DNA from: a virus
Taxonomy: Duplodnaviria > Caudoviricetes
Strand: one strand, 5' to 3'
DNA length: 41,376 nt
Virus record (IMG/VR): IMGVR_UViG_3300012890_000079
Location: 1-41,376 of that record
The translations under genes and the position numbers were made by a program. The stretch's first letter is position 1; each line of letters begins with the position of its first letter. Positions 20,141 through 37,835 of this stretch are shown here, in pieces. The notes under the pieces were generated by a model. It worked only from the letters and a program-made list of their open reading frames with translations, was not told the origin of the DNA and made no database searches.

Positions 20141-21958
20141 CTAGTCCCAGCTAAATAAATCGTGGTCTTGGTAAATGTATTCGCTGACGACTTTGCCCGT
20201 CATGTAGCCGCCCAGGGCATTGACCAGCGCTGCCATACCATCAATCTTCTCCTTACTCTTGCCCTTGTCTAGCTTGATATTGCCCGCCGGGTCGCGGGCC
20301 AGCACCACGTTGCCACACATCCACGCCAGTACTGGGTTGCCGTAGTGGTGCACCTTCGCGTCGGCTACCAGGTTTTCTAGTTCTACCGTAGGGGCAGAGA
20401 GTGAAGCGAAGCCCTGCCGCAGTTCCTGCATAGGTACACCCTCTTCAATGAGCTGGCTTACTAGCATAGAAGCATTCCAAGGGTCGTAATCAATCATTTG
20501 CACTTGATAGGTGGCGCAGGTGGCCTCAATCTCGCTTTTGATGAAGGCGTAGTCCGTCACGTTACCGGGTGTGGCAATCAAATAGCCCTCATCTACCCAC
20601 TGACGGTAAGGCACAGCGTCCTTTTTGGTGCGCTCGTCTACCTTATCCTCAGGCACCCAGAACCAGCATCTCACGTCAAATTGCCCACCATCCTTGGGGA
20701 AAATCAGCACAAACGACGAGATGTCACGTGTTTTGGCCAAATCCAGCCCGCCCCAGGCCTTGCGGCCCGCCAGCTCACTCGGCGGGGTACCCTGCGCGCC
20801 CTGCGCCCATAGCTCGGCCGGCAGCCAAACCTCGGCCGAGTCCGTCCACAAGTTGAGGTGCTTCGTTTTGAAGGGCACCTGTTGGGAGGGTAGGCGCACG
20901 GCAGCTTTGTACTGCTCCCGCAAATACTCCAGGCCCAGCGACACACCCAGATTGGGGTTGGCCTTCTGCCAGGTAGTTTCATCCTGCCAGTCGTCGCCCT
21001 CATCGAGCGAGTAGATAAGCACGAAATAAGAATCATCGTGGTGCTGGCCTTCCAGCAGGCCGGCCAGTGATTTGCGCAGCTGGGCGCAGGGGCCCAGCCG
21101 ATTGAAGCCGGCCGTTGTGATGATGCTCAGCAGGGGCTGCGAGCGAGCGCCGGTGGCTGATTTAAGTACCGAGTACAGCCCATCGTCAGGGTGGGCGTGG
21201 TACTCGTCGATGTAGATGCCGTGCGGGTTAAGGCCGTCCTCGGTTTTCGAGTCGGCCGCCATCGGCTTCATCGTGCTCAGAGTGCTGGCCACAGAAATGG
21301 CATTGCGCTGCACGGCCACCTTTTTGAGTAAGGCCGTAGATTTCTTGGTCATGTTGCGCGCGTCGTCGAACACAATGCGAGCCTGCTCTTTTTTAGTGGC
21401 CGCGCAATAGATTTCGGCACCCGCCTCACCATCAAGCACCAGTAACTCCAAGCACACGCCCGAGCCGACCGTGCTTTTGCCATTTTTGCGAGCTACCTCC
21501 AGGTAAGACTCCCGGAAGCGCCGGGTACCATCGGCCCGCTTCCAGCCGAAAAGACTGGCAATAAAGAATTGCTGCCAGGGCTCTAGCGTAAGGGGCTGGC
21601 CAGCCCAGCGCCCTTTGTTGTGGGTGAGCAAGCTGAAGAACTTGACGCGTATCATAGCAGCCTTTTCGTCGAAACGCAGGCCTCGCTCGTGGCCCGTTTC
21701 GAGGTCGCGCAGGTGACGCTCAGCGGCTAGCCAGGTGTAGCGCCCCACCCGTACGGGGAGACTACGCAGTTGCGCGCGCAGCGGCTCCAGCTTGCGCTCC
21801 AGAGCGGCTATTTGGGCAGTGTGGTCTTTCTCCTTCTCCTTTTTGAGATTAGCGATACGCAGCACCATCGGGCGCAGCTTCTCCTGCACGGCGGCCTCGG
21901 CGCGGCCGGCGGTCGCCACGTCGTGGGCGTATTGGTGCCAGGGGGCGAGGGTGCTCAT
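20141..21958 (-). CDS. terL: Terminase large subunit
   Basis: LEPWQ, ARKNGKS, IDEYH, GLDLA, KIDG motifs; start MSTLAPW. Confidence 0.95.
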   Translation of the reverse strand: MSTLAPWHQYAHDVATAGRAEAAVQEKLRPMVLRIANLKKEKEKDHTAQIAALERKLEPLRAQLRSLPVRVGRYTWLAAERHLRDLETGHERGLRFDEKAAMIRVKFFSLLTHNKGRWAGQPLTLEPWQQFFIASLFGWKRADGTRRFRESYLEVARKNGKSTVGSGVCLELLVLDGEAGAEIYCAATKKEQARIVFDDARNMTKKSTALLKKVAVQRNAISVASTLSTMKPMAADSKTEDGLNPHGIYIDEYHAHPDDGLYSVLKSATGARSQPLLSIITTAGFNRLGPCAQLRKSLAGLLEGQHHDDSYFVLIYSLDEGDDWQDETTWQKANPNLGVSLGLEYLREQYKAAVRLPSQQVPFKTKHLNLWTDSAEVWLPAELWAQGAQGTPPSELAGRKAWGGLDLAKTRDISSFVLIFPKDGGQFDVRCWFWVPEDKVDERTKKDAVPYRQWVDEGYLIATPGNVTDYAFIKSEIEATCATYQVQMIDYDPWNASMLVSQLIEEGVPMQELRQGFASLSAPTVELENLVADAKVHHYGNPVLAWMCGNVVLARDPAGNIKLDKGKSKEKIDGMAALVNALGGYMTGKVVSEYIYQDHDLFSWD

Positions 21959-22170
21959 TCGGGCGTAGTAAACTTTTCCAGATGGTCGGTCATGGCTTGC
22001 GCGGCCTCCTCTGAGCCAGGCTTGCGCAGGGCTAGACGAATCACATCGCGCATGCTGGCGCGCTTTTCGGGCGACCATTCAGCGAGGGCGCAGGCGTCAC
22101 AGTAACCACGCTCGCGCACAGCTTTGCGTGGAAAGTGCTGCTGTTGCTGGCATTTAGAGCAAGTAAACAC
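21955..22170 (-). CDS. Small CxxC...CxxC zinc-binding protein
   Basis: CSKC...CDAC; ATGA coupling to terL. Confidence 0.6.
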   Translation of the reverse strand: MFTCSKCQQQQHFPRKAVRERGYCDACALAEWSPEKRASMRDVIRLALRKPGSEEAAQAMTDHLEKFTTPE

Positions 22171-22178
22171 GGGCTGAT

Positions 22179-22550
22179 TTATTTGGTAAAACTTAGATAG
22201 TGGGTAAGGGTGCCGTCTGCCGTCTCTTCATAGTCATCGTAATTGACTATGCCGTGCAGTGGGCAATAAATGTCCCCTGTGTCGTACACCACCCAGTGGC
22301 TCCCCATTTGGAAGGGATAGGTAAGCTTGAGAATACACAGCGCGGGTAAGGCCGCTTGCGTTTTGAAGCGTAGCAGCCGCTTGGCTGGCTTGTAATGGTA
22401 GTACTTCAGCGCCCAGCGTAGCACCTTAGCCGACGTGGCCCAGTCGTGGCAGAATACCGTGAGGCAGGAATTGAGCGACACGCCGACTATCATGGCCACG
22501 CAGCACTGGCCGCAGACAGTAGAGTCCTCGGGTTGGAGAATCAGCTTCAT
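22179..22550 (-). CDS. C39-like (papain-fold) cysteine peptidase
   Basis: LQPEDSTVCGQCCVAM and HWVVYD motifs; ATGA coupling to terS. Confidence 0.65.
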   Translation of the reverse strand: MKLILQPEDSTVCGQCCVAMIVGVSLNSCLTVFCHDWATSAKVLRWALKYYHYKPAKRLLRFKTQAALPALCILKLTYPFQMGSHWVVYDTGDIYCPLHGIVNYDDYEETADGTLTHYLSFTK

Positions 22551-23023
22551 CGGGCCTCGTCGATAAGTGCTGCCAGCGGGTCTTTTTCTTCCGTTGCACC
22601 CAGCGCCGACACCTTGGATCGGCTGGCTGGCGTCAAGCCAAACTCGGTAAGCATGGACTTGGCCCGACGCCACAAGTCGGCTTCCATAGCGACTTCGGGC
22701 CGTGCACGGAACACCTTGCCCCCGTCGCTCAATAGTTCGTAGACACGGCCTCTTTTGGCAATAGTGACCCGCACGCTTACCCACTGTGCGAGCACGTCAC
22801 AGAGCAGCGTCATGGCGGCCGTGTCACCGTACGAAACAATCTTCATTTGCAGTAATAAACCACCGATTTCCTGCCAGTATTCTTTGGCCATAGGTGTCAG
22901 CCAATCAGGCGGTAAGCCTAGTGCAACGTCGGGTATAGGCTCCTGCGAATTAGTGCGACTAGGTTGCAGCGTACCGCGGAGCTTTTTGAGGTGGGTTGGT
23001 TTGGGAGGGCGGCCGGCTGCCAT
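22547..23023 (-). CDS. terS: Terminase small subunit (P27 family)
   Basis: GRPPKPTHLKKLRG...PPDWL...EFGLTPASR. Confidence 0.95.
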   Translation of the reverse strand: MAAGRPPKPTHLKKLRGTLQPSRTNSQEPIPDVALGLPPDWLTPMAKEYWQEIGGLLLQMKIVSYGDTAAMTLLCDVLAQWVSVRVTIAKRGRVYELLSDGGKVFRARPEVAMEADLWRRAKSMLTEFGLTPASRSKVSALGATEEKDPLAALIDEAR

Positions 23024-23034
23024 ATCAGAATTTT

Positions 23035-23125
23035 CTAAGCGAATTATGCACGCGTGTGTTTGTGACTCTGGACTACGGTCTAGTGATGACGATGCCTGAG
23101 GATTTTGACCCCCTACCCCCTATGG
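23035..23125. other. Probable cos/packaging region
   Basis: Between the packaging HNH and terS; minus strand GGGGGTAGGGGTCAAAATCC...AGACCG...CACGCGTG, resembling HK97-like cos regions. Confidence 0.5.
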
Positions 23126-23319
23126 GGCATTTGCGGGACTTCTGCGGGCACCAATACCTCCACCTGGCGCACGACCATTAGGATGGGGTCGCCAGTCTTC
23201 TGGCAGGTGCCCCAGTGGGTAGCACAAGCCGGCGGGTAAGCGAAGGGCACGAACTCAACGGCTAGGTGGTCGCCACCACAGCGGGCGCAGTGAGTGACTG
23301 AGGTAGTGAATCGCTTCAT
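23113..23319 (-). CDS. Small Cys/His-rich hypothetical protein
   Basis: CARCGGDH...C; ATGA coupling. Confidence 0.55.
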   Translation of the reverse strand: MKRFTTSVTHCARCGGDHLAVEFVPFAYPPACATHWGTCQKTGDPILMVVRQVEVLVPAEVPQMPHRG

Positions 23320-23636
23320 TGTTGATTAGGCTGAATGGTGCGCTCGGTGGCACTCTTGGCCTGGTGGCAGGGGCGGCACAGGCTCTGGTAGTTGCTGCTG
23401 TCCCAGAAGTCGCCACCAAGGCGCACGGGCGTGATGTGGTCGCACACCGTGGCGGCCGTGGTACGCCCTGCCTTGGTGCACTCAGCACAGAGCGGGGCTC
23501 GGGCTAGCTGGGCAGCGCGGGCGGCCTGCCAGCGGGCGGTGCCATACTCGGCAGAGCGGGCGGCGTGCTGCAGGTATGTGCGCTTCTGAGGCGCGGGCTG
23601 CCAAGGCCTACGCTTGCTTGGGGGCAAAGAAGGCAT
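23316..23636 (-). CDS. Packaging-associated HNH endonuclease (HK97 gp74-like)
   Basis: PLCAEC...CDHITP...NYQSLCRPCHQAKS, upstream of terS. Confidence 0.9.
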   Translation of the reverse strand: MPSLPPSKRRPWQPAPQKRTYLQHAARSAEYGTARWQAARAAQLARAPLCAECTKAGRTTAATVCDHITPVRLGGDFWDSSNYQSLCRPCHQAKSATERTIQPNQQ

Positions 23637-24015
23637 CGGGCAGCATCGGAAAGAAGCCAGGGAATGCGGGGTCGCCGGGCACGAGGCAGAGCGTAAGCGA
23701 CTCGGCCGCGCCCACTGTGGCAGCGGGTAGCTCCACGTCATGCAGGCGGGGGCGGGTATCGGCGTACCACCGCACGCGGTTGGTAGCGGCGGGGCGCAGG
23801 TCGAAGTGCCAGTACGGGTGGCCGGCGCTGGGTGGTAGCAGGTCGGCTGGCTGGTTAGCGCGCAGGCCCAGCGCCCGGGCCAGGGCAGTGGAGAGGTACA
23901 CGCGGTAGGTGCCGGGCCGCTTGGTAGGGGCAATGCGCAGGCTGGGAAAGAGGCCACGCGGGGGCGGCACGTAGTCGGCTGGATTGTAGGTGGGCAGTAT
24001 CGTAGGTAGAGACAT
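23608..24015 (-). CDS. Hypothetical protein
   Basis: Start MSLPTILP; GC-rich phage-like codon usage. Confidence 0.65.
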   Translation of the reverse strand: MSLPTILPTYNPADYVPPPRGLFPSLRIAPTKRPGTYRVYLSTALARALGLRANQPADLLPPSAGHPYWHFDLRPAATNRVRWYADTRPRLHDVELPAATVGAAESLTLCLVPGDPAFPGFFPMLPDAFFAPKQA

Positions 24016-24071
24016 TTTTGCAGAGGTAGCGCGTGTGCGTAAGATACGAAATGAACTGATAACCTGAGCGA

Positions 24072-24350
24072 TTAGTGCGGACTTGTGATGATGGCAATGG
24101 CCTGGTCCACGGTGTAGACGATGTGGTACTTGGAGCCCCGCCAGCTGTCTCGAAACTCGGCCTCGCCGGGGGTGAGCTTGTCCTTCTCGGTGGCTTTTAT
24201 CTCCATCAGGAAGGTGCGGCCGCGGTAGCCGACGAGCAGGTCGAATGCGTTTTTCAGGACGTGGCAATGCAAAACCGAAGCGCCGATACCGCGCAATGCT
24301 CGCACGATATCGGCCTGGTTTGCATCCGCTCGGGATGCCATTCGGAGCAT
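24072..24350 (-). CDS. VRR-NUC-like PD-(D/E)XK nuclease; N-terminus supplied by HNH cassette 2
   Basis: DANQ...FDLLVGYRG...MEIK...KLTPGE. Confidence 0.85.
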   Translation of the reverse strand: MLRMASRADANQADIVRALRGIGASVLHCHVLKNAFDLLVGYRGRTFLMEIKATEKDKLTPGEAEFRDSWRGSKYHIVYTVDQAIAIITSPH

Positions 24351-24592
24351 TATGACTTTGGTTTGTGCAGATATTGGCGCAGACTCGACAAAGGCAGCCT
24401 ACCACTGAATACTCTGCCGGTAGCTACATCTTCCAAAGTGTAGTGCGTAGCGTAGCCCACACCACAATGCTGTCGAACAGAAGCATGCACCTTAAAAAGT
24501 TTACCTGGTAAATAAGTTGGAGAGGTAGATTTTGGCTTGCCCTCAAGCAAGGCCCCGATTTTCATGTCGGTATATTCTAGTTTTCTTTTCAT
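24350..24592 (-). CDS. Hypothetical protein (cassette cargo)
   Basis: 80 aa, AT-rich, TAATG coupling to the nuclease. Confidence 0.65.
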   Translation of the reverse strand: MKRKLEYTDMKIGALLEGKPKSTSPTYLPGKLFKVHASVRQHCGVGYATHYTLEDVATGRVFSGRLPLSSLRQYLHKPKS

Positions 24593-24595
24593 GTC

Positions 24596-25015
24596 CTAAG
24601 CAGCGTGACGGGCGCGGTATTCTCGCCCACGGTTTTGGTGACAGGTTTTGCACTGGCGGCTGTTGCCGTAGCGGTAGATGTTCTCCTCGGTGAGCGGGTG
24701 ACCATGCTTGCACTCGGTTTTCACCGTGTTGCGGTGCCGACCCGCCTCAGCCATGTCGGCCATGTTATCAGCCTGCGTGCCGAGCACGAGGTGGGCGGGG
24801 TTGACGCATGCCCGGTTGTGGCAGGTGTGGCGCACCACTTGGCCGTCGGGAATGGGGCCGTGGGCAAGCTTGTAGGCCACACGGTGAGCACCATCCGCCT
24901 TGCCTTCATGCCAGGCGCGGCCATAACCCTCTGTGCTTATTTGACGAGTCCAGTTCCAGCAGGTATCGGTCTTTTCTGCCTGCGCCCAAAAGGGGTTTTG
25001 AATGTTGATTTCCAT
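24596..25015 (-). CDS. Free-standing HNH homing endonuclease
   Basis: FWAQAEK..CWNW...AHRVAY...[15 protein letters not shown]...CKHGH...CKTC. Confidence 0.9.
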   Translation of the reverse strand: MEINIQNPFWAQAEKTDTCWNWTRQISTEGYGRAWHEGKADGAHRVAYKLAHGPIPDGQVVRHTCHNRACVNPAHLVLGTQADNMADMAEAGRHRNTVKTECKHGHPLTEENIYRYGNSRQCKTCHQNRGREYRARHAA

Positions 25016-25042
25016 GCTATAATTTACGAATTAAAATGCAGA

Positions 25043-25162
25043 TTAACAAGTAATTATAAAACAGTTCTTGAGCTGGTGCAGGTGTAGGACGGTGGCGCCA
25101 ATAGCCCGCAACGCTTTCACGATTGCGGGCTGGTTGGCATCGACCTTGGCGGCGGTGCGCAT
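25043..25162 (-). pseudogene. Stranded original N-terminus of the VRR-NUC-like gene
   Basis: [35 protein letters not shown] then IITC-stop; TAATG coupling to the upstream gene. Confidence 0.85.
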
Positions 25163-25437
25163 TAGGTTCGTTGGCTGGCCAGATTCAGTATCTGAGGCAG
25201 CGCATCGGTGAGCGCATCCCGGAAGTCCTCATTGCCGCGCGCCGCGATAAGCAGCGCCTGCACTAGGTGGTCCGGCGTGCCGCAAATGCGGGCGCTGCTG
25301 TTGGGGGTATTGCGCGGGTCTACTGTGAGCACGAGCGCAGAGGGCATTAGGTGGTCAGCAACTGTATCCTCGTGGTCATCACACCACTCGCTCAATTCTT
25401 GGAAGGCTTCGTTCAGGGCTGCAATAGCTGGTATCAT
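25162..25437 (-). CDS. Hypothetical protein
   Basis: Start MIPAIAAL by ATGA overlap with the HNH stop. Confidence 0.65.
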
Positions 25438-25976
25438 TTGCTTGGGGTGGCCGTAGCCGTTGAGGGTGAAGAAATACACGAGCAGATGCCGCAAGTCCCC
25501 TCGCAGTAAGGGGTAGTGCTATCGCGGCGACGAGCGCGGAAAGCATGGGTGCCGGCCAGATTGCAGGTTTTACACACCCGATATGGAGCCCGGCCAGGCC
25601 TGTGTCGCAGGACGGTATTCTCAGGCGTGAACTCATGCCCGTGCTTGCAATGCGTTTGCTGCTGCTTGGCCGCCCGACCCTTCTGGGTCATATCCTCGGA
25701 GTTCTGTTTTGGAGTGCCCAGGAATAGGTGAGCGGGATTGACGCAAGCCCTGTTGTCGCACTTGTGGCAGACCAATAAGCCGGGTGAGATGGGGCCAATA
25801 TTCAGTTCATATGAAGCTCTGGGCGCTTTCAGCATCTTGCCATTTAGGTTGATGACGCCGTAGCCGTTGCTTACCAAGCTTTGAGTCCAGACCCAGCAGT
25901 CGCCAGCAGGCCCATGCCCATCTGCCTTATCTACTTTGGCCCAGAAACGAGCCTCAAACGTTGCGCTGTTATCCAT
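25434..25976 (-). CDS. Free-standing HNH homing endonuclease (cassette 3)
   Basis: RFWAKVDK...CWVW...[15 protein letters not shown]...[14 protein letters not shown]...CKTC. Confidence 0.9.
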
Positions 25977-25977
25977 T

Positions 25978-26484
25978 TTAGGCTTCTGATTGAGGTGATA
26001 ATGATTCGCACTGGCCGTTGCAGTAGGGCGCGGGCACTGGGCTGGCCGAGAGCGGAAACTGTGCCTCGGCCTCCGTGGGCACCTCCCACAGCGAGAGCTT
26101 GCCCTTGCAGGGGATGGGCGTGGCGAAGGGCTGCACGTGGCTCAGTGCCCACGCTACTCGCCCATTGGAGTAGTCGCCGCAGGCTAGCTCTACCTCACCG
26201 AGCACGAGGTTCCACGTCTCATCCATCTTGTGCATCTCATCGACTGAGCACATACCCAGGACGGCGCCGCGCGGGAGCGTGTCGAAGGTGAGATTGTGCT
26301 GGGCTAGGATGCTGGAAATGATGGGGTCGGTTTCGCACACCTCGCGGGCCCAGGCCGGCTTACCAGCGCTGGCGGCGATGGCCAGTGGCCCCCGATGCGT
26401 GGTACCCCACGAGCGGGTTTCGTACTCTTTGTAGCCCAGCATGATGAGCGTGGCCCATGGCTGGAGTAGGCTAATGGCTTTCAT
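25978..26484 (-). CDS. ASCH-domain protein
   Basis: [36 protein letters not shown]...KGKLSLW. Confidence 0.9.
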
Positions 26485-26621
26485 TTGGGGCAGTAGGTTG
26501 AGGTTTGGGGTGTAGCATCCTGGGCGGGGTCCATCGGCGGCCAGTGGTGCTGCCAGCAGTGGCCGTACTCGCTGAGCGGCTCGTGGCACTCGGGGCAATG
26601 GGTGTCGGGGTTCATAGGCAT
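26481..26621 (-). CDS. Mini zinc-finger-like protein, ~46 aa (not in the ORF track)
   Basis: MPMNPDTHCPECHEPLSEYGHCWQHH...; ATGA coupling to the ASCH gene. Confidence 0.5.
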   Translation of the reverse strand: MPMNPDTHCPECHEPLSEYGHCWQHHWPPMDPAQDATPQTSTYCPK

Positions 26622-26665
26622 AAAAGGATGTCTTAACAAAATGCTGATATTGAAGAGCGTAGCGA

Positions 26666-26749
26666 TGGACGGGACGGGAATCGAACCCGCACTGGTGCAA
26701 GCACCGATAGATTTAAAGTCTACCTCCTTGGCCTTTTGGATACCCGCCC
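26666..26749 (-). tRNA. Class II tRNA with UUA anticodon (ochre suppressor candidate, Tyr-like body, G3:U70)
   Basis: GGGCGGG TA TCC-AAAAGGCCAA-GGA G GTAGA-CTTTAAA-TCTAT CGGTGCTTGCACCAGT GCGGG-TTCGATT-CCCGT CCCGTCC A; CCA not encoded. Confidence 0.85.
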
Positions 26750-26755
26750 GCTTTG

Positions 26756-27193
26756 CTATTTGCCGCTCACCAGCAGCCGGTACGTGTCGAGTTGCAGCCG
26801 GCCCAGGTTGATGCCTGTTTGCGTGAGGTTATTGATGGCGTTGGCCTCCTCGACTTTGGCCGTGCCGGCAACCACACGCTCCGTAGTGGCCATCACGAGG
26901 CCGAAGAGCTTCTCGAAATTGTCGGCCATGCCCGGGGGCAGGGCCGGCAGTTGCGGCTCGTACCTGATAGTGCCCGGCACCGTGGCCGGCGGCTCCACCT
27001 CGTTCCAATCCGCCATTTCCTCCCAGCACTTTTCCACCGAGCACGTGAAGTGGCTCAGGTGCGTGGCGTAGATGACGAGGCTGCCTTTGACTTCGAAGCT
27101 GCGAAACTGGTGCAGCGAGGAGTCGGGGCGGTACTTGAACCATTTGTGGATGCGGGGCCCAATGAGGGCGGCGGGCGAATCGTTTTTATGCAT
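26756..27193 (-). CDS. Hypothetical phage protein
   Basis: 145 aa with a helical C-terminus (EEANAINNL...GINLGRLQL). Confidence 0.7.
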   Translation of the reverse strand: MHKNDSPAALIGPRIHKWFKYRPDSSLHQFRSFEVKGSLVIYATHLSHFTCSVEKCWEEMADWNEVEPPATVPGTIRYEPQLPALPPGMADNFEKLFGLVMATTERVVAGTAKVEEANAINNLTQTGINLGRLQLDTYRLLVSGK

Positions 27194-27815
27194 GGCGTGA
27201 GGGGGTAGTGCGAAGCGCACGTTGTAGCAGCAGTTGGGCGCGCTTCAGGTTGATGAGGGAGGGATGGGCCTGGAAAAGGCGGGCCTGCGCCTGACGTGCA
27301 GCTTGGGTGGTGGCGAGGCGGCGGTCGACTAGCGTGGTGGCCACGTAGCGGTCGGATAGGTCACGCCCCCCGCTGGGGCCGCTGACAACTGCCTCGGCCG
27401 TAGGCACTAGTTGTAGGTTGTTGAGGGCGTAGTGGCTGCGGTCTGAGTCGCGGTGAATGACCTTGTAGCCGGCGGGCACCGCGCCGTAGGCCTGCTCCCA
27501 GAAATGCCGGCCAGCGCGCTTCCACTTGCCGTCTACCTTGACCTGGGCGATGGGCCGCCCGCGCGACTCCCAGACGCGCACCTCCCCGGCGGCCGCTTTG
27601 CAGTGGACCGGCACGGGCCGGGGCGTGCCGCGCAGGCGCAGCTCGTCGCGCAGGTAAGCATGCAGGCTGCCGTGCGCCACCCCCAGCTGCCGCGCCTGCG
27701 CGGCGATGCTCAGCAGTTGCGTAGCAGGCGTGCGCAGCCATTGCGTGACGGTCGGGGTGCGTAGCCAGGCGATAGGGCTGGTGTCCAGGGGCTTTCCCAG
27801 GGTCGGAGTAAGCAT
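27186..27815 (-). CDS. Divergent HNH_3-like protein
   Basis: RHFWEQAYGAVPAGYKVIHRDSDRSHYALNNLQLV. Confidence 0.65.
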   Translation of the reverse strand: MLTPTLGKPLDTSPIAWLRTPTVTQWLRTPATQLLSIAAQARQLGVAHGSLHAYLRDELRLRGTPRPVPVHCKAAAGEVRVWESRGRPIAQVKVDGKWKRAGRHFWEQAYGAVPAGYKVIHRDSDRSHYALNNLQLVPTAEAVVSGPSGGRDLSDRYVATTLVDRRLATTQAARQAQARLFQAHPSLINLKRAQLLLQRALRTTPSRHA

Positions 27816-27825
27816 CTTGTGTTGG

Positions 27826-28020
27826 CTAGGCCGCTTGAGGTGGATAGTTGAGAGTTTTGCGCTGGGCACGGGCGGTGGCTTCGGCTTCAGCCAGCTCCAG
27901 GCCTGGCCCGCCGCGGCGGTGGTAGTAGCCGAGGAGCGCCTCGAAGCGGGCGCCGTCGGCCTGGCGTAGCTCGCGGCGCACGGCCACGGCCATGCGCTTG
28001 CTGTAGGCCTCGGTGCTCAT
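27826..28020 (-). CDS. Hypothetical protein
   Basis: 64 aa; TGATG coupling to the helicase. Confidence 0.6.
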   Translation of the reverse strand: MSTEAYSKRMAVAVRRELRQADGARFEALLGYYHRRGGPGLELAEAEATARAQRKTLNYPPQAA

Positions 28021-29543
28021 CAGAAGGGCGCGTTGGCGTCGAAGGGAACTTCAGCCAAGGGCGCAGGCTGGCCGAAGTCGCCGGCGGTACCGATGCGCAA
28101 CCCGGTGGGCTGGTAGTCGGGCACCGTCTCAATGGCGCCCACCACGTGGGGCTCATTCTCCGGCAGGTCGCTGTAGGCCCCGGTGCGCATCACCGACTTC
28201 ACCAAGGCCGTACCCAGCCCGCCGTTGCGGTGCTTGGCCACGATGAGCTCGGTGAGGTCGGTGGTGGGGTTGCCCATCTCATCTTCCATGATTTTGTAGT
28301 ACTCCGGCCGGTAAGGGAAAATCACGAGGTCGGCATCTTGCTCGATGGCACCCGACTCGCGCAGGTCGCTGAGCTTGGGCTTGTTGTCACCGCCACGCTT
28401 CTCCGTATCACGGCTAAGCTGCGAGAGGGCAATGACGGGAATGTGCAACTCCTTGGCGATGAGCTTGAGTCCGCGGCTGATAGCGCTGATTTCCTGCTCG
28501 CGGTTGCCACCCTTGCCGGCGCGCGCGGTGGCCAGTTGGAGGTAGTCCACAGCCAGCCACGTGATGCCGTGCTCCTGCTTGGCCTTGGTGGCCTTGGCCC
28601 GCAACTCCTCGATGTTGATGCCGGGCGTATCGTCGAGCACCATGCCCATCTTGCGCAGGGCCGCCCCGCGCACCCGGATGCTCTCTGCTTCCTCCTTGGT
28701 GAGACCGATACCACGGGTGAGCTGGTTGGTGGTGTACTCTAGCTCCGTGGCCAGCATCTTGGTCACGAGCTCCTCGCTGCTCATCTCCAGGCTCGAAATC
28801 ATACCCGGGTAGCCGGCGGCCACCGCCTTGCGGGCCGTGGCCAGCATCAGGCTGGTTTTGCCCATGCCGGGCCGGGCGGCCTCGATGATGAGGTTGCCCG
28901 GCTGCCAGCCGCCGGTAATGCGGTCGAGCGCCCACAGACCCGACGGCACCCCGGTAATACCCGACTTGACCTGGCTGGCAGCGATAATCTTATCGACCAC
29001 GCGGTCGTAGAGCTCGCCCACGAGTTGAGGCCGGCGCACCTGCATCGAGGTGCTCAGGTTGTTAAGGGTAGCGTAGGCATCAGCCAGCAGCGTATCAGCC
29101 GGCACCATCGGGTTGCGGGCCTGGGCCAGCAGCTGCACGGCCACGTTCCAGATTTCGCGCTTGGCGTGGTGCTCCAGCAGCATGGCGCAGTGCGTGGGCA
29201 GGATGCCGGCGCCGCTCATGTAGCTGGCCAGGCCCGCCACGCCGGCCGGGCCGCCCGCCTCGCTGAGCTTGCCGGCCGCGGCCAGTTGCTGCACGACGGT
29301 CAGCGTATCGACGGCCTGGCCGCTGGTGCTCAGCGTGACGATGGCCCGAAACACGTGCTGGTGGGCCGGGATGTAGAAGACGCTGGCATTGGCGCGCAGC
29401 AGGGCCAGTACCGTGGGCACGGCCGGCGCTTCGAAGAGCATGGCGCCCAGTACGGCGGCCTCGATGTCGGGCGCGTTGGGCGGGGGCAGCGTTTCGGTGC
29501 GGGCCGGCCGCGGCGCCGGTAGGGTGAATTTGGAAGGTTGCAT
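28020..29543 (-). CDS. dnaB: Replicative DNA helicase
   Basis: AARPGMGKT, SLEMS, VDYLQL, ALSQLSR, SDLRESGAIEQDAD, AKHRNG. Confidence 0.97.
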   Translation of the reverse strand: MQPSKFTLPAPRPARTETLPPPNAPDIEAAVLGAMLFEAPAVPTVLALLRANASVFYIPAHQHVFRAIVTLSTSGQAVDTLTVVQQLAAAGKLSEAGGPAGVAGLASYMSGAGILPTHCAMLLEHHAKREIWNVAVQLLAQARNPMVPADTLLADAYATLNNLSTSMQVRRPQLVGELYDRVVDKIIAASQVKSGITGVPSGLWALDRITGGWQPGNLIIEAARPGMGKTSLMLATARKAVAAGYPGMISSLEMSSEELVTKMLATELEYTTNQLTRGIGLTKEEAESIRVRGAALRKMGMVLDDTPGINIEELRAKATKAKQEHGITWLAVDYLQLATARAGKGGNREQEISAISRGLKLIAKELHIPVIALSQLSRDTEKRGGDNKPKLSDLRESGAIEQDADLVIFPYRPEYYKIMEDEMGNPTTDLTELIVAKHRNGGLGTALVKSVMRTGAYSDLPENEPHVVGAIETVPDYQPTGLRIGTAGDFGQPAPLAEVPFDANAPF

Positions 29544-29545
29544 GG

Positions 29546-30547
29546 CTAGATGATGGGTTGCTGCTGCGCGGTGGCAGCGGTTTTGATATTGAGCTTGGCC
29601 TGGGTAGGCGGGGGCAGCGGCTGGCCGGGGCCGGCAGGTCGGGCCTGCACCTGGGCAGCGATGGCGGGCCAGGTGCAGCTGCACCACACGCCGTTGGTGT
29701 AGGGGCCATCCGGATGCTGCGGGTCGCCTAGCCAGTCAGCCAGCTTGTGGGCCCGCACCCCGGGCCGCATGTGGCCCGCCTGGTAGCCGGCCACCTGGTT
29801 GCGCAACTCGGCGAGCTTGCCCTGCTGGGCTTGGTACTTGGCCAAGGCGTAGAGTCGGCTCCAGCCGGGAAAGCCCTGCTGCTCCGAAAAGCCCCACATT
29901 TGGCCCATCTGCGTAGCGAGTGCCTTGACTTCAGTCAGCAGCGCTGCCGGTAGCTCGGCAGCCGCCACGGGCCGGGACTCGGCAGCGTGGGGGGGCTCCG
30001 CAACGGGGGGCACTAACTCTGAAATTTTGGCGGGCAGAGGGGCGGCAGTTATTTCCTCCGCAGCCTCGCCCACACACGCACTCGCGGGAAGGGTGTGGTC
30101 TTTTCTATTCTTGTCTTGTCTATTCCTTATAGGTGGGGAATTTTTCCCCTTATCTTCAGCCAATTCCGGAAAGTCGTGGGGAATTTTTCCCCTTACATCT
30201 CCCTCTTCTGGCTGCTCCTGTGGGGAATTTTTCCCCATACTTCCGACCCATTTAGCGGCCGGCTCATAGTTCAAATGCCACTCTCCGGAGCGACTTGTAT
30301 CCCCGCTGTAGTGGCGAATCAGGCCCCGCTCCTCAAGTGTTGCCACCGCCGAGGGCAAGGTTTTTTTGTCGATGCGCAGGTCGGCATATACCTGTGAGGC
30401 CCGGCGGTAGAGCTTGCTGGGCCAGTGCACCGGGCGGGCGCGGTTGAACTCGTTGAGCAGATAGAAATAGAGCTTGCTGGCCGCCGGCGCAATCGTGCGC
30501 TCGGCGTCCAGTTGCCAGAATTGCTCAAGTAGTTCGAAATAGGACAT
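29546..30547 (-). CDS. Phage replication initiator (N-terminal winged HTH)
   Basis: KLYFYLLNEFN...LEERGLI; internal iterons; upstream of dnaB. Confidence 0.8.
   Translation of the reverse strand: MSYFELLEQFWQLDAERTIAPAASKLYFYLLNEFNRARPVHWPSKLYRRASQVYADLRIDKKTLPSAVATLEERGLIRHYSGDTSRSGEWHLNYEPAAKWVGSMGKNSPQEQPEEGDVRGKIPHDFPELAEDKGKNSPPIRNRQDKNRKDHTLPASACVGEAAEEITAAPLPAKISELVPPVAEPPHAAESRPVAAAELPAALLTEVKALATQMGQMWGFSEQQGFPGWSRLYALAKYQAQQGKLAELRNQVAGYQAGHMRPGVRAHKLADWLGDPQHPDGPYTNGVWCSCTWPAIAAQVQARPAGPGQPLPPPTQAKLNIKTAATAQQQPII
30133..30236. repeat. Three palindromic iterons (probable origin)
   Basis: GTGGGGAATTTTTCCCC at 30133, 30176 and 30220 (43-44 bp period). Confidence 0.8.
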
Positions 30548-30553
30548 GGGTCG

Positions 30554-31504
30554 TTAGGCAGTAAAGAGTTGGGACTGGGCGGCTGCCTTAGCCTTGGGGT
30601 CGAGGGAGAGCAGCGGCTGCTCCAGGTGGAAATGGCGCAGCACTTTGAAGGTGCGCTCCACGTCAGACATGGCCCGGTGGGCACCTTGGTTGCTGAACTT
30701 TAGGCGGTCGCAGAGGTCGGTCAGGCCGCACTTGGCGCCCTTGGCCGAGCGGGCCCGCGCCAACTGAAGCGTGCAAAACCACTTATTGGGCAGCATCTCC
30801 CGGCCCTGGCGCATACAGGCATGCTGGAGCTTGCTGCGGTCGGCGCCGACGTTGTGGGCGATGAGCAGCGAGTCCCCGGCTAGGGTGATGAACCGTTGCA
30901 GGACAGCCGTTTCCGGCGTGGCCCGCCGTACCTGTTGCTCCGTGATGGTGGTCAGTTCCGTGGTCTTGGGCCAGAGCCAGTCGGTGAAGCGCACGAACGA
31001 CTGGTACCGGTCCACTTCCTGCCAGTTTTTATAGCGAATGGCCGCTAGCTCCAGCATAAAGTCGCCCTGGTACTCGGTGTCGATGATGGTGAAGTCGTCG
31101 AACAGCCCAGTACTGGGCTCGGGCTCGGGGTCGGGCGTGGTGACCACGAGCAGCGGCGCCGTCTTCGGTGCACTGGCTAGCCCGCGGATGCCATTGAGTT
31201 TTTCCTGGGCCAGCTTGCGCTGCTCACGCTCGAACGCGGCCTGCTGCTTGCGCTTTGTCGAGTCCTGGCGAAAGCGCAGCAGCGCCTTTGTGTATTCGAG
31301 CTTGGTCGAGCGCTGCACGCCGAAGGGCAGGCCAAAGCCCAGGCCCGCCGGCCGGAACATGGTCTTATCCTCGTATTCGACGACAGACTCCAGGCGGTCG
31401 CGCTTGCCCCCAAGCGTGAGCTTCAAGTACTCCCGTTTCCAGGAGTACTTGCTGTGGCTCATCGAGGAGTGCAGCAGAAAGTAGAAGGCCTGCGCGCTGC
31501 TCAT
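30554..31504 (-). CDS. DEDDh 3'-5' exonuclease with an extra N-terminal domain
   Basis: IIDTE...IAHN...CTL...AHRAMSD. Confidence 0.9.
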   Translation of the reverse strand: MSSAQAFYFLLHSSMSHSKYSWKREYLKLTLGGKRDRLESVVEYEDKTMFRPAGLGFGLPFGVQRSTKLEYTKALLRFRQDSTKRKQQAAFEREQRKLAQEKLNGIRGLASAPKTAPLLVVTTPDPEPEPSTGLFDDFTIIDTEYQGDFMLELAAIRYKNWQEVDRYQSFVRFTDWLWPKTTELTTITEQQVRRATPETAVLQRFITLAGDSLLIAHNVGADRSKLQHACMRQGREMLPNKWFCTLQLARARSAKGAKCGLTDLCDRLKFSNQGAHRAMSDVERTFKVLRHFHLEQPLLSLDPKAKAAAQSQLFTA

Positions 31505-33675
31505 GCTGCTACCTCCTGCTTTTGGCCCTGTTTGCGCTCTGAGTGGGCGGCTAGCAGCTGTTCATCCGACCAACCCAATTCCTTACACAGGGCTGGCAGG
31601 TTGCTCGGGTGCTCTTCGTGCAGCCAGGTAATGAGTTGCAGGTCGAGCAGCAGCGATTGCAAAGCAGGCGTCTCCATTTCAGCCAGATAGCCAATTAGTT
31701 GCTTGCGCTCCGACTCATCCATGTAGGTGCGAGTAGACATCTCGCCCCAGCCGTAAACCTGTTGCAGCATTTCGCGCACCGCCTTGTGCGGGCCATACTG
31801 CAAGTCGCTCAGCAGCATGCGGCGCAGCAGCACAGCCGTGTAGATGCCTTGGCCATGCACATCAGCCGTGAGTTGATAGTAAGCCTGCCGACGGGCCGCG
31901 CCCAGGGCACGCACCTTGGCGGCATCGTCCTTTTCCTTTTGGGTTTCCTTAGCCTTTTCCTGCTTGATAGCGGCCACCACATCGGGTTGGCTAGCTACGG
32001 CAGCATCGAGCACTACCTCCACTATCTGGCCAGCCCGGGCGCCCTCCGTCATCAGCGCAGGGCGCACCCGGCCCTGGGCCCGAAATTGGTCTACAAGGGC
32101 ATCAGGAAAGCTGTTCGTATTCTTAAACTTATTGAGGTTGAGCACGTCAGCCGGCACTCGGCTCCAGTGGTCGGCTACTTTTAGCACCGGCTGGCCATTA
32201 GTAGCCAGCTGCTCACTCATGCGCGCCACGTAGCGCGTCACCTTCTCACCGAAGCAGCCACCGTCGAGGCAGATGTTACCGCCCATTTCGTCGAAGAGGT
32301 AGGGCGTGTTGCCCGTGCGCTTGGGGCAGGTAAGGCAGGCGCCGGCCACAGGGTAGAGCGTAGCATCATCCTTCGGGAAGGCTGCCTGCTCTAAATCATG
32401 CGTCTTGAACTGGCGCTCGATGTAATTTCGGATATCCGCCGCGCTGTAAAGCCGACGCATCACGCCGGCTACCTCTACTTTATCGCCGTAGCCAGCATCA
32501 AGCTGTTGATGAGCCTGGGTCTGCTGGGCACGCGTGAGCCGGGCTAGTTGCTGGGCTGAGCCGATAAGCAGGCGGCCATGCTGCAAAGCATCTACCCACT
32601 CAGGCAACAACTCCATCAGCCGGGCGCGCTCGGCTACGAAGCGCGCGGGCTTGCCCACCTTCGCTGCAATCTCCTCGAGGGGAAACCCATTCTTTAGTAG
32701 CTCAGCAAAGGCATGTGCCTCATCGGCCGGGCGCACATCCACGCGCTGCAAGTTCTCCAGCAGCTGCACCTCCAGAAATTCGCGGTCGGTAAGGTTGCGC
32801 ACCGTCGCCGGCACCTCGGCTAGGCCAGCCGACTGGGCCGCGCGGTAGCGGCGGCCGCCGGCCACGAGCTCATACTGGCCAGCCACCGAGTGGGGCCGCA
32901 GCACGATGGGCTGTAGAATGCCGTGGGCCTTCACGCTCTCGGCTAGCTCAGCCAGGGCGGTCTCGTCGAATACCTTGCGGGTGTTGGTGGTCACGACGAT
33001 GCTGTCGATGGACACCACACGCAGGCCAGCCGCAGCTGTATCGAGTATGCCGGTGAAGTGGGCGGGGGTAAGCTTCTGCTTAGCGGCGGGGCTAGGTGCG
33101 GGCGCCGGCTCGGTCTGTTCTGACTTTATTTCAGCAATGCCAGCAGCAGTAGGTTTGTAGGTGCTACCGTTGGCAAAGGGCAATAGCTCTACTAGTCCAG
33201 CGGACTGTAACTCGTTTAGCTCAGCGCCCTGGGTAAAGTCTTTGGCGTGAGCCAGTAGCTCACCATCCCTTACCGTCCTTTCCAGCAGGTTCCACGCTGC
33301 TATACTCATTTCCAGTTCGGGCTGGGCCGATGGAGCGGGTGCAACCTCGTCGAGAGGCTGTTTCAGGTTCTCGCCCAGGTCGGGCAGACGCTTCAGGTAG
33401 CATAGCAGGATGCCAAAGTCATCACCCTCCCAGCCTACCGGCTCTACCTGCACGCTCTTTTTCTGCGGGTCATAGTCGCCCAGTACCTTCACGAGCTTGC
33501 CCGACAGGCGCTTACTCACGTCGGGCAGCACCGTCGCCATGTCGCCCTCGAGCAGTTCGTTACCGTCGCAGTCGAGCCAGGGCAAGATAGGTTCAGGTTG
33601 AATTGGTGCTGGGGCCGGCGCCGGCATCACATCGGCCTCAGTGGCCACCGGTACTTTTTTAGTTTTAGTAGCCAT
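31501..33675 (-). CDS. Large ParB/Spo0J-domain protein
   Basis: GILQPIVLRP...LVAGGRRYRAA...LLENLQR; CxxC...C cluster. Confidence 0.9.
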   Translation of the reverse strand: MATKTKKVPVATEADVMPAPAPAPIQPEPILPWLDCDGNELLEGDMATVLPDVSKRLSGKLVKVLGDYDPQKKSVQVEPVGWEGDDFGILLCYLKRLPDLGENLKQPLDEVAPAPSAQPELEMSIAAWNLLERTVRDGELLAHAKDFTQGAELNELQSAGLVELLPFANGSTYKPTAAGIAEIKSEQTEPAPAPSPAAKQKLTPAHFTGILDTAAAGLRVVSIDSIVVTTNTRKVFDETALAELAESVKAHGILQPIVLRPHSVAGQYELVAGGRRYRAAQSAGLAEVPATVRNLTDREFLEVQLLENLQRVDVRPADEAHAFAELLKNGFPLEEIAAKVGKPARFVAERARLMELLPEWVDALQHGRLLIGSAQQLARLTRAQQTQAHQQLDAGYGDKVEVAGVMRRLYSAADIRNYIERQFKTHDLEQAAFPKDDATLYPVAGACLTCPKRTGNTPYLFDEMGGNICLDGGCFGEKVTRYVARMSEQLATNGQPVLKVADHWSRVPADVLNLNKFKNTNSFPDALVDQFRAQGRVRPALMTEGARAGQIVEVVLDAAVASQPDVVAAIKQEKAKETQKEKDDAAKVRALGAARRQAYYQLTADVHGQGIYTAVLLRRMLLSDLQYGPHKAVREMLQQVYGWGEMSTRTYMDESERKQLIGYLAEMETPALQSLLLDLQLITWLHEEHPSNLPALCKELGWSDEQLLAAHSERKQGQKQEVAA

Positions 33676-33677
33676 CA

Positions 33678-34472
33678 CTAAGCAGCTTGAGGTTGTGGTT
33701 TCCAGTTCTTCCAAGCCAGGTAGGCATCCTGGCCAGTGCCCGTGCGGGCCGCCAGGGCGTAGGCCATGCGGCGCGGGTGGCTGGGTAGCAGCTTGCGCAT
33801 TTCCTCCAGCATGCGGCCCATCGGGGTGAGCCCGGGGCTTTTCGTCTTGGCGCTCACGCGGGCATTGAGCACGGGCGTGGCCACCTCACGAGGCGCCCGC
33901 TCTTTCTTCTGGCTGCTGGCTTTGGGCTTGCCCTTGGTGGCCTGGCTTTGTGCGGCCGATTTGGCTTCCTTGGTGCGCTTGAGGCCACGGTTGGCGGCCC
34001 AGCTCATAATCTGCTGCCGGCTGCGGCCGGGCGCTAGCGCTAGCAAATCTGGCCAGGTAGCCGTGGAGTAGAGCCGCTGGATATTGGTTTGCTCCTGCTC
34101 GGTGAACACTTGCTTCGCAAGGGGCGGGGCCGAGGGCGGCACCACCACGGCAGGTGCTACCACTGCTAGGGCGCGCGCGGGCGCCGCGGTAACTACCACC
34201 GCAGATGCTGTCTGTTTTTGGTGCCGCTCCAACTGCACCCGCGCGCGGGCCAAGGCCACGTTTATAGCGACCGTGCGCTCCTGATTAGGTAAGGCGCTGA
34301 GACCAGCCACGATAGTAGCTAGCTGCGGCTCGGATGCCGCGCGCATGTCGTTCATAAATTGCTCGGCCAGGGCTAGCGCGTCAGTAGCTGGCAGCACCTT
34401 GCTGGGTGTAGGTGGTGGCGCTGGCGGGCCAGCCCCCTTGCGGCGTGCGGGCCGCAAAACAGTTGTTGTCAT
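33678..34472 (-). CDS. Hypothetical basic protein, possible Myb/HTH-like segment
   Basis: FTEQEQTNIQRLY...LAPGRSRQQIMSWAANRGLKR. Confidence 0.65.
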   Translation of the reverse strand: MTTTVLRPARRKGAGPPAPPPTPSKVLPATDALALAEQFMNDMRAASEPQLATIVAGLSALPNQERTVAINVALARARVQLERHQKQTASAVVVTAAPARALAVVAPAVVVPPSAPPLAKQVFTEQEQTNIQRLYSTATWPDLLALAPGRSRQQIMSWAANRGLKRTKEAKSAAQSQATKGKPKASSQKKERAPREVATPVLNARVSAKTKSPGLTPMGRMLEEMRKLLPSHPRRMAYALAARTGTGQDAYLAWKNWKPQPQAA

Positions 34473-34506
34473 ACTTTTGTGGGGTAAGTGGTTAAAAAGT
34501 GAGTTG

Positions 34507-34528
34507 GGCCACCGTGACAGCGGTGGCC
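34507..34528. terminator. Hairpin 3' of the tRNA-like element
   Basis: GGCCACCG-6nt-CGGTGGCC; T-run follows on the + strand. Confidence 0.45.
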
Positions 34529-34536
34529 TTTTCTCG

Positions 34537-34604
34537 TGGGGGTGACGGGGCTCGAACCCGCTGAACTGCCCGGATGCAGCGCCGCCCGTTGCGGCTTCAC
34601 CCCC
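34537..34604 (-). ncRNA. Compact tRNA-like RNA, 68 nt
   Basis: GGGGGTG AA GCCG-CAACGGG-CGGC GCTGC-ATCCGG-GCAGT TCA GCGGG-TTCGAGC-CCCGT CACCCCC A. Confidence 0.7.
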
Positions 34605-34611
34605 AGCACGG

Positions 34612-35730: not shown

Positions 35731-35794
35731 ACCTTTGTCGAGGAAATAGTTGAATGGATTGGCCGCTGGGTGTGCGCCCAGCGGCTTTTCTTTT

Positions 35795-36040
35795 TTAGCG
35801 GGTGCTGGCCAGCCCGGCGGCGGGCGCCTCCTCGGCCACGCGCAGCGGGTGGGTGGGCTCGCCGAATGGGGAGAGGGCCGCGCCGATGATGGTGAGCGCC
35901 AGCAGCCCCACCACGATGGCCAGGGCGGCTTTGAGCTTCTCAATGCGGCGGTACAGCGGCTGCTGGTCGTAGGGCAGCATGGGCACCGGCGGCGCGGGCA
36001 CCGCAATGCGCTTCAGGTAAGGGTTGGGAATGGGAGGCAT
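35795..36040 (-). CDS. Small single-TM early protein
   Basis: 81 aa with ALAIVVGLLALTIIGAAL. Confidence 0.6.
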   Translation of the reverse strand: MPPIPNPYLKRIAVPAPPVPMLPYDQQPLYRRIEKLKAALAIVVGLLALTIIGAALSPFGEPTHPLRVAEEAPAAGLASTR

Positions 36041-36065
36041 GAGGTGGGTGGAAATAGGTGGTGAC

Positions 36066-36714: not shown

Positions 36715-36751
36715 CTGTGAATGGGTTGGGAATGAGGGGTGAAGTGTTTAG

Positions 36752-36759
36752 CAAATTTA
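36752..36759 (-). promoter_or_regulatory. -7 element of the early lytic promoter
   Basis: TAAATTTG; adjacent AGTTTACAACAATT resembles AGTTCACAACAATT at ~37162 (operator candidates). Confidence 0.65.
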
Positions 36760-36823
36760 TGATAGTTTACAACAATTAGCAATAAAATGTTGTAAGTTCA
36801 CAAACAAAAGGCCAAAAAAAGGC

Positions 36824-37206: not shown

Positions 37207-37671
37207 ATGGATAATATTGAAAACAGGCTATTGGCTTTTCGTGAAAGCACTGGCCTACACAAAAAGGCATTTTCTGATAAAACCGGTTTAGACCCTGGCC
37301 TTTATGGTCGATATGAGGGCGGCGTGAATAAGCCCTCATTTGAGACGCTTGAGAAGATTGCTAATACATTCCCAAAGCTTAGTCTTAATTGGCTGCTAAC
37401 TGGCCGAGGAGATATGCTCATTGGCTCGGTAAAACAATCTGCTAATGAGTCTCTGCCAACGCCTGGGTTGATATCTGGCCCCGCCACGGTAGCTGAGGCC
37501 GAAAATGTACTGTTGCGTCAGCAGCTAGCAGATAAAGACAAGCTCATTGACCGGCTGTGGAATATGATTCCGCAGAAACTGGGAAAGTTGATGAGTAGCT
37601 CCGATGCAGCCCGCACTTGGTTCCCGCCGCTCGCCCCCTCGGGCGGGCTGGCAGTGAGCTACGGCGGCTGA
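37207..37671 (+). CDS. XRE-family HTH prophage repressor (CI-like, no S24 peptidase domain)
   Basis: RLLAFRESTGL...YGRYEGGVNKPSFETLEKIA...LNWLLTGRGDM. Confidence 0.9.
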   Translation: MDNIENRLLAFRESTGLHKKAFSDKTGLDPGLYGRYEGGVNKPSFETLEKIANTFPKLSLNWLLTGRGDMLIGSVKQSANESLPTPGLISGPATVAEAENVLLRQQLADKDKLIDRLWNMIPQKLGKLMSSSDAARTWFPPLAPSGGLAVSYGG

Positions 37672-37697
37672 GCTACTCTATTTTTTTCACCCCAAAG

Positions 37698-37717: not shown

Positions 37718-37758
37718 ACCGCCTGCCCGCCGGGCGAAAAGCTGCAAAAACACATCGC

Positions 37759-37826: not shown

Positions 37827-37835
37827 CATTTATAA

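Follow-up and report, generated by a model that had tools for sequence, protein, structure and literature searches.

An orphan ochre-anticodon tRNA with a tyrosine-like body and an alanine identity pair in a small, likely temperate phage

The 41,376 nucleotides of phage DNA analyzed here (the whole stretch, hereafter the window) contain a single tRNA gene, which is complete and intact and combines the anticodon UUA with a G3·U70 acceptor pair and A73. Judged by sequence, its body is best fitted by tRNA-Tyr, from which it has nevertheless diverged far, and the gene groups with the orphan UUA tRNAs of standard-code phages. The tRNA is predicted to work as an ochre suppressor, charged mainly by the host alanyl-tRNA synthetase (AlaRS) and to some extent by TyrRS. 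Ochre-anticodon tRNAs in phages that use the standard code are a published puzzle (Lak megaphages, phage G), and the window adds a small case with a clear prediction, namely, alanine at UAA. If the prediction holds, phages would re-engineer synthetase identity into stop readers, and a natural Ala ochre suppressor scaffold would be gained; if it fails, the gene would illustrate the origin of such genes through drift. As a single copy without a target, this tRNA cannot yet count as evidence for a new system.

The tRNA gene and its assembly support

The gene and its diagnostic parts are the following.

26666..26749, minus strand: tRNA gene of 84 nt, 7/5 class II cloverleaf with anticodon UUA (ARAGORN, Rfam and fold)
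26714..26716, minus strand: anticodon U34 U35 A36, complementary to UAA; the same bases are present in a contig of depth 87.5
26743..26749, minus strand: 5' strand of the acceptor stem, G1 G2 G3 C4 G5 G6 G7, with G3 (26747) paired with U70 (26669)
26666..26669, minus strand: 3' side of the acceptor stem, U70 C71 C72 A73 (A73 at 26666), of the AlaRS type and identical to that of the host-family tRNA-Ala(GGC)
26691..26706, minus strand: long variable arm with a 4-bp stem, a CUUG loop and two unpaired bases followed by U48, in the Tyr-type orientation

ARAGORN calls this gene, as tRNA-Stop(tta), and no other tRNA in the window, and the Rfam tRNA model RF00005 matches it with 55.3 bits (E 2.2e-9), with all 71 model positions covered. 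The cloverleaf is both the minimum-free-energy and the centroid fold (-30.8 kcal/mol, z -2.0). Read off the sequence, the acceptor pairs are G1:C72, G2:C71, G3·U70, C4:G69, G5:C68, G6:C67 and G7:C66, followed by A73; the D arm consists of a 3-bp stem and a 10-nt loop, one base below the usual length; the anticodon loop is C32 U33 U34 U35 A36 A37 A38; the 4-bp variable arm is closed by CUUG and followed by A, G and U48; and the T arm is standard. The Levitt pair is A15:U48, with A15 at 26735, and the canonical class II marks are all present (U8, A14, G18G19, U33, purine 37, the T-loop and the long variable arm). The window has a single match to the anticodon-arm pattern, and 100 shuffles have none. 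The gene does not encode CCA, and neither do the host tRNA genes in L165. Thus, the complete long-arm cloverleaf with UUA at 26714-26716, G3:U70 and A73 that the initial annotation had described is borne out, including by the ARAGORN check. It had overlooked the A15:U48 Levitt pair, the shortened D-loop and the closeness of UUA to Leu and Ser anticodons, which is taken up below. Ochre suppressors read not only UAA but, by wobble, also UAG.

An assembly error at 26716 or 26669, the two positions on which the stop anticodon and the G·U pair depend, is highly improbable. A separately assembled Logan contig of depth 87.5 is identical to the window over 26000-27500 (0 differences) and, over 15,906 positions, deviates from it in a single place, 30562, distant from the tRNA; a 63.6-kb metagenome contig (L297) is identical to the window DNA as well. 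The Logan contig comes from the one run in which this DNA was found, probably the source run, so its agreement argues against an assembly error without being independent. All of this evidence stems from that one probable source run and from contigs, which drop rare variants.

Tyrosine-like body and alanine identity pair

Because UUA is one change away from the anticodons of tRNA-Tyr (GUA), tRNA-Leu (UAA) and tRNA-Ser (UGA), genes of all three isotypes were collected for comparison from genome G108 and 41 genomes of the host phylum (Bacteroidota); the distinct ones number 27 for Tyr, 26 for Leu(UAA) and 25 for Ser(UGA). Isotype profiles that omit positions 34 and 35, with one mis-parsed Tyr row (L241) retained, classified 78 of 78 genes correctly when each was held out in turn. 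The phage tRNA scores 35.4 bits with the Tyr profile, 19.0 with Leu and 5.6 with Ser, against medians near 95 for true members. At its 3' foot, the variable arm leaves two bases unpaired, a trait of 27/27 Tyr genes, 0/26 Leu genes and 0/25 Ser genes, and U35, G1:C72, G2:C71, G3, A21 and A73 are likewise Tyr-like. Profile scores and arm orientation thus agree with the Tyr type assigned initially.

Other features depart from tRNA-Tyr, namely, U34 replacing G34, A15:U48 replacing G15:C48, the T-stem, U10:A25 and the shorter D-loop. The A15:U48 pair is found in 0/27 Tyr, 26/26 Leu and 13/25 Ser genes, and the T-arm resembles that of tRNA-Leu(UAA). Leu(UAA) ancestry nonetheless fits worse than Tyr, since A20a, G21, C2:G71 and the single unpaired arm base are absent, although A73 and A15:U48 are present; Ser(UGA) ancestry, with a profile score of 5.6 bits, was rejected as well, the phage tRNA having A73 rather than G73 and C4:G69 rather than R4:Y69. 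Covariance models gave 62.0 bits for Tyr and 49.6 bits for Leu. Given that the Tyr model yields 52-75 bits for phage tRNA-Tyr, 84-93 bits for ordinary Tyr bodies with the anticodon alone changed and 62.1 bits for a host Ser tRNA, these models alone do not separate Tyr from Ser and are not diagnostic. As a separate observation, 13 of the 25 Bacteroidota tRNA-Ser(UGA) genes (L323-L340) combine G73 with a Leu-like core, consisting of A15:U48, one unpaired arm base and a short D-loop.

The nearest of 69 Tyr/Leu genes, which is not the ancestor of the phage tRNA, differs from it by 15 substitutions in 21 paired positions, with 0 stem pairs broken. Six pairs are changed on both sides, including the tertiary pair G15:C48, which became A15:U48, and when the 13 stem changes were placed at random, every pair was kept in 9 of 200,000 trials. 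The body has thus long been maintained as a tRNA; this does not date the anticodon, and the compensated stem changes could all predate the anticodon change. The same divergence shows that the gene is not a simple G34>U point mutant of a host tRNA-Tyr, the class of ochre suppressors to which the initial annotation pointed.

The G3·U70 pair is rare outside tRNA-Ala. Among the fetched loci, an unrepresentative sample, none of 65 distinct non-Ala viral tRNAs and 2 of 211 cellular ones have it, one of the latter being a parser mis-register, which agrees with its initial interpretation as an alanine determinant. In the same 65 viral tRNAs, G·U occurs 6, 9 and 6 times at acceptor positions 1, 2 and 5, respectively, and G3·U70 is also absent from the isotype set (0/27 Tyr, 0/26 Leu and 0/25 Ser(UGA)). 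In the host family, tRNA-Ala(GGC) ends with U70 C71 C72 A73 in 5/5 genomes, and the phage tRNA matches it at G1:C72, G2:C71, G3·U70, A73 and C20; G108 tRNA-Ala(GGC) has G3·U70, G4:C69 and C20. Two minor AlaRS elements deviate in the phage tRNA, with C4:G69 instead of G4:C69 and C20 instead of G20, although C20 is shared with the host-family tRNA-Ala(GGC). An engineered amber tRNA-Tyr with G3·U70 reportedly inserted Tyr for the most part in vivo, except when AlaRS was overproduced.

Compared with the determinant table of PMC9976931, the phage tRNA contains the main AlaRS set (G3·U70, G2:C71 and A73), the TyrRS elements A73 and U35 without G34, the LeuRS elements A73 and A15:U48 without A20a, and three of the four LysRS elements (A73, U34 and U35, with U36 absent); the G73 expected for Ser is missing. 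In vitro, E. coli tRNA-Tyr given G3·U70 alone accepts both Ala and Tyr (PMC9976931, in vitro only). Furthermore, when long-arm allo-tRNAs carrying G3·U70, whose native anticodons are GCG and UUA, were tested as amber suppressors in E. coli, the residues inserted were mainly Ala and Ser (PMC5389517; the data are repeated in PMC7609411).

Carrier phage, relatives and stop codons

The genes and sites around the tRNA that bear on its expression and history are listed below.

26756..27193, minus strand: gene P1 (145 aa), upstream of the tRNA, with its TAG stop 6 nt before the tRNA; three distant relatives
27186..27815, minus strand: HNH endonuclease gene upstream of P1 (PHROG scans)
25978..26484, minus strand: ASCH-domain gene, two genes downstream of the tRNA (Atlas score 0.95; PHROG 3193; no Pfam match)
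36752..36759, minus strand: TAnnTTTG site ahead of the leftward early operon (pattern match; the window-wide count is at chance, 11 vs 10.8)
37207..37671, plus strand: cI-like HTH repressor gene, divergent from the operon with the tRNA (PHROG scans)

The carrier is an HK97-type siphophage according to PHROG scans of 60 ORFs, which recognize genes for the terminase, portal, protease, capsid, connector and tail as well as for DnaB, ParB, a small serine recombinase and a cI-like repressor. Prophages in 6 of 274 genomes from the family of the Pontibacter genome G001, which we take to be Hymenobacteraceae, have terminases that share 72-80% identity with that of the phage. The metagenome contig L297 continues, by arithmetic, ~7.6 and ~14.7 kb beyond the two window ends, which fits a prophage. 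The carrier is therefore likely a small, temperate phage or prophage; no joint showing excision or circularization was found in contigs covering 21400-41376.

Downstream of a cI/cro-type switch, early and replication genes form a long leftward operon, within which the tRNA lies in the same orientation. The site at 36752 matches TAnnTTTG, the Bacteroidota -7 consensus; a second such site, at 37104, faces cI, and none was found on the minus strand between 36752 and the tRNA. A search of the tRNA's strand revealed neither a sigma-70 promoter nor a terminator, and the Logan search listed no RNA dataset containing this DNA. Expression of the tRNA would thus follow that of the early lytic operon, with silence in the lysogen; its location inside this operon supports the lytic-phase setting envisaged initially.

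Several features of the surroundings are of separate interest. The phage carries five HNH endonuclease genes (417-1022, 23316-23957, 24596-25015, 25434-25976 and 27186-27815), three of them close to the tRNA. A stretch near 25058-25160 (25043-25162) resembles the start of the gene at 24072-24350, and both match the same place in relatives; this likeness represents a partial duplicate around the HNH gene 24596-25015. PADLOC detected defence or toxin-antitoxin genes in 0 of 10 proteins scanned.

In the collections searched, the tRNA is a singleton. Patterns run against IMG/VR returned 1, 32, 0 and 5 loci, none with this tRNA body; the GTDB species genomes yielded 49 loci, mostly chance, and no relative of the tRNA; the 274 host-family genomes gave 2 weak partial DNA-search matches and pattern matches at the level of the reversed control; and INPHARED and PLSDB contained partial matches only, mostly to the T-arm, with no second copy. 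The 20 matches in JGI metagenomes comprise L297, with identical DNA and the only UUA anticodon, 13 Tyr, 5 Ser and 1 Trp. These tRNA patterns require exact matches and would miss a relative whose D-loop or anticodon stem had changed. No relative bearing on anticodon conservation, the check named initially, was found in these collections.

With ARAGORN defaults, none of 19 related phage and prophage loci carries a tRNA, and 15 of them extend ~10 kb or more upstream of the terminase, the expected place of the tRNA being at 4.7 kb; the 15 include a pair, L056 and L169, that seem to be one and the same prophage. L174 has the same two flanking genes but lacks the entire HNH-P1-tRNA block between them. 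Single-protein scans of IMG/VR with P1 and with the ASCH protein found nothing, and a P1 profile recovered three loci (L230, L231 and L232), 0/3 with a tRNA. In L232, the P1 relative follows an HNH-like gene without a tRNA, which indicates that the tRNA is a separate, lineage-specific addition. The HNH and P1-family genes themselves form a two-gene cassette in two unrelated phages (window 26756-27815; L232:3055-4429), and the P1 family, which has no Pfam match, counts 4 representatives among 1.84 billion.

The genome uses the standard code and displays no sign of stop co-adaptation to the tRNA. The stops of 51 roughly called genes are 21 TAG, 19 TAA and 11 TGA, and the genes are intact in code 11, as the initial annotation stated, with TAA and TAG as the main stops. 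No in-frame stops were found inside genes with homologues; where frames were checked, stops in alignments were off-frame or at gene ends. TAA or TAG ends 17 of 23 genes here and 96 of 137 homologues in relatives without the tRNA (p 0.81), and backup stops within 5 codons are not in excess (3/17 vs 15/96). The regulated readthrough proposed initially is not supported, no target having been found. The in-frame junctions exo-rep (TAA), TAC_T-TMP (TAA) and g76-Ad1 (TAG) were rejected, as the same junctions are present in tRNA-less relatives (for exo-rep, in two of them), and the TAC-TAC_T junction is out of frame. A C following the stop as a possible signal was also discarded: it is found in 8/17 core genes vs 18/96 in relatives, but the 12/39 among TAA/TAG genes of both strands (a hand count) represents background.

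Possible roles and comparison with known systems

Our preferred explanation, held tentatively and at somewhat short of an even chance, is that this far-diverged Tyr-type UUA tRNA serves as an AlaRS-chargeable ochre suppressor of the early lytic operon, causing partial, untargeted read-through of UAA and UAG. The tRNA would be silent in the lysogen and made with the early operon after induction; RNase P and 3' nucleases would then release it from the transcript, and the host would add CCA. The loss of G34 would weaken recognition by TyrRS and G3·U70 would provide anticodon-blind charging, in which case the pair would be a selected change rather than decay. Alanine would then be inserted partially at UAA and UAG during lytic growth. 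Any read-through must presumably be partial, because strong suppression would also lengthen the capsid and tail proteins of the phage itself. The benefit, if any, would most likely come from disturbed termination on host mRNAs during infection, an idea voiced for crAss-like suppressors in PMC7886860; this is the weakest step. The main reason to think that both features were selected is that a stop anticodon and an anticodon-blind charging signal coexist in an otherwise flawless gene. Against selection speak the singleton status, the lack of the tRNA in the 19 related loci, the lack of a target and a stop usage like that of tRNA-less relatives. A bolder version, in which a phage tRNA-Tyr was re-routed to AlaRS via G3·U70 in a selected identity switch and became an Ala-inserting ochre/amber weapon against host translation, is possible but unlikely. 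If true, it would be the natural twin of the double-identity tRNA obtained by engineering and would suggest that, as a rule, the UUA tRNAs of phages are transferred to synthetases blind to the anticodon (Ala here, and Ser for the G73 long-arm, Ser-type tRNAs of L145 and L155).

The same gene might instead be an ordinary accessory phage tRNA-Tyr(GUA) with one or two recent private mutations (G34U and C70U) and slight, unselected suppression, a case of "suppressor pre-emergence", which we consider a serious though rather doubtful alternative. The singleton status and the lack of a target or of adapted stop usage are what it would predict, phage tRNA-Tyr genes score equally low on the Tyr model (52-75 bits vs 62.0), and a gene in a repressed prophage would be shielded from selection. 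In PMC7886860, one crAss-like genome is described with a one-step TTG>TTA change, and a lone G34U in ordinary Tyr bodies is also seen in three metagenome-assembled genomes (L002, L011 and L046). Yet this account requires two hits, both at identity positions, with no stem-breaking hit alongside, and one of them creates a 3:70 pair not encountered in the sampled non-Ala viral tRNAs; the structural and replication genes of the phage are intact, and a GUA-bearing parent was not found either. Should the tRNA be a working ochre suppressor, its charging could also be mainly with Tyr, Leu or Lys, with G3·U70 incidental. We regard this as improbable: the TyrRS elements include G1:C72 besides A73 and U35, the LeuRS elements G18G19 besides A73 and A15:U48, the T-arm is Leu(UAA)-like and three of four LysRS elements are in place, but G34 is lost, the Leu-specific A20a and G21 are absent from a body whose arm is of the Tyr type (0/26 Leu), the U36 of Lys is absent, and G3·U70 is strongly avoided in non-Ala tRNAs.

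Finally, the RNA could be a decoy for a defence nuclease that cuts tRNA-Tyr (PtuAB of the retron-Eco7 or Septu type), its decoding being incidental. According to PMC13096335, PtuAB nucleases cut the variable arm of tRNA-Tyr, and overexpression of a phage tRNA-Tyr, which "may act as a decoy or supplement", gave the host tRNA partial protection; the phage tRNA described here retains an arm in the Tyr-type orientation. A decoy, however, needs neither G3·U70 nor a stop anticodon, and the tRNA has no promoter match of its own nearby, whereas rescue required a strong promoter. Moreover, an anticodon change in a T5-type tRNA-Tyr abolished rescue from retron-Eco7 (PMC11555353), which disfavors the anti-defence role suggested initially, at least as a classical tRNA-Tyr replacement. 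Overall, the decoy is decidedly improbable, and the partial, mainly alanine-charged suppressor described above is the reading that we tentatively prefer.

In comparison with known systems, the sequence places the tRNA outside tRNA-Tyr proper, allo-tRNAs and recoding systems. It shares a Tyr body, A73, U35 and U34 with supC and supM, which are laboratory Tyr ochre suppressors, and it shares a Tyr body, A73, U35 and G3·U70 with an engineered "double identity" E. coli tRNA-Tyr (ref. 100 in PMC9976931). Unlike these, it is natural, unites G3·U70 with U34, and has lost G15:C48, the D-loop length and the T-stem that almost all 27 Bacteroidota tRNA-Tyr have. Like the (9/3) allo-tRNAs (Mukai et al., PMC5389517), it is natural and combines a long variable arm with G3·U70 and UUA; unlike these or the 8/4 allo-tRNAs, it has a 7/5 cloverleaf with a 3-bp D-stem and a 10-nt D-loop and is not tRNA-Sec-like. 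An allo-tRNA identity of either kind was rejected, given the 7/5 fold and the inability of U8 and U65 to extend the acceptor stem. The anti-defence tRNA-Tyr of T5/T6 (PMC11555353, PMC13096335) are similarly phage-borne, of Tyr type with a divergent variable arm, and located near an HNH or homing endonuclease gene, but they keep GUA and must translate Tyr codons, which the window tRNA is not expected to do. With the suppressor tRNAs of phages recoded to codes 4 and 15 (10.1101/2021.08.26.457843, where UUA tRNAs of phages that keep TAA as a stop are surveyed as well), it has in common a phage origin and a stop anticodon; unlike in those phages, there is no recoding, and TAA (19) and TAG (21) are the main stops of the 51 called genes.

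The UUA tRNAs of Lak megaphages, phage G and crAss-like phages resemble the window tRNA in the ochre anticodon, the intact cloverleaf, the continued use of TAA as a stop and the lack of a known target. UUA ("Sup-TTA") tRNAs are reported in 51/51 TAA-keeping Lak megaphages (PMC8346664), a UUA tRNA in phage G with TAA kept as a stop (PMC12484599), and the TTG>TTA anticodon change in the crAss-like alpha case (PMC7886860); the extract of PMC13015707 contains nothing on suppressors. Unlike these large, tRNA-rich phages, the carrier is a 41-kb, HK97-type, likely temperate phage with this tRNA alone, and the gene combines an alanine determinant with a long-arm body of the Tyr type and lacks conservation among relatives (0/19, as opposed to conservation in Lak). 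In the main texts searched, which cover few subscription journals, no natural Tyr-scaffold UUA tRNA with G3·U70 was found.

Other unusual tRNAs were observed in the course of the searches. Three metagenome-assembled genomes encode an ordinary tRNA-Tyr body with UUA (L002:3986-4067, L011:3986-4067 and L046:3986-4068), which in L002 occupies the Tyr place of a Thr-Tyr-Gly-Thr cluster; these could be errors or real chromosomal ochre mutants. Among the 32 pattern matches, there are four more phage UUA tRNAs (L135:2972-3046, L144:2987-3062, L145:2971-3061 and L155:2971-3059), with the Ser-type signals G73 in L135, L145 and L155 and a long arm in L145 and L155. Long-arm UUA tRNAs were also seen in a Planctomycetia genome bin (L037:3651-3741; G73, Ser-like) and in a betaproteobacterial one (L021:3986-4078; Sec-like in shape by eye). 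A weak, 124-base Rfam tRNA match without an ARAGORN call (G108:C7:534595-534718, L228; 30.3 bits) is possibly a tRNA with an insertion. Related viral contigs (L137:2933-3053, L146, L147, L150 and L151), four of them 188-196 kb in length, share a conserved class II tRNA-like gene within a tRNA array, which has a UUA loop and ~40 extra bases in the D region and is missed by ARAGORN.
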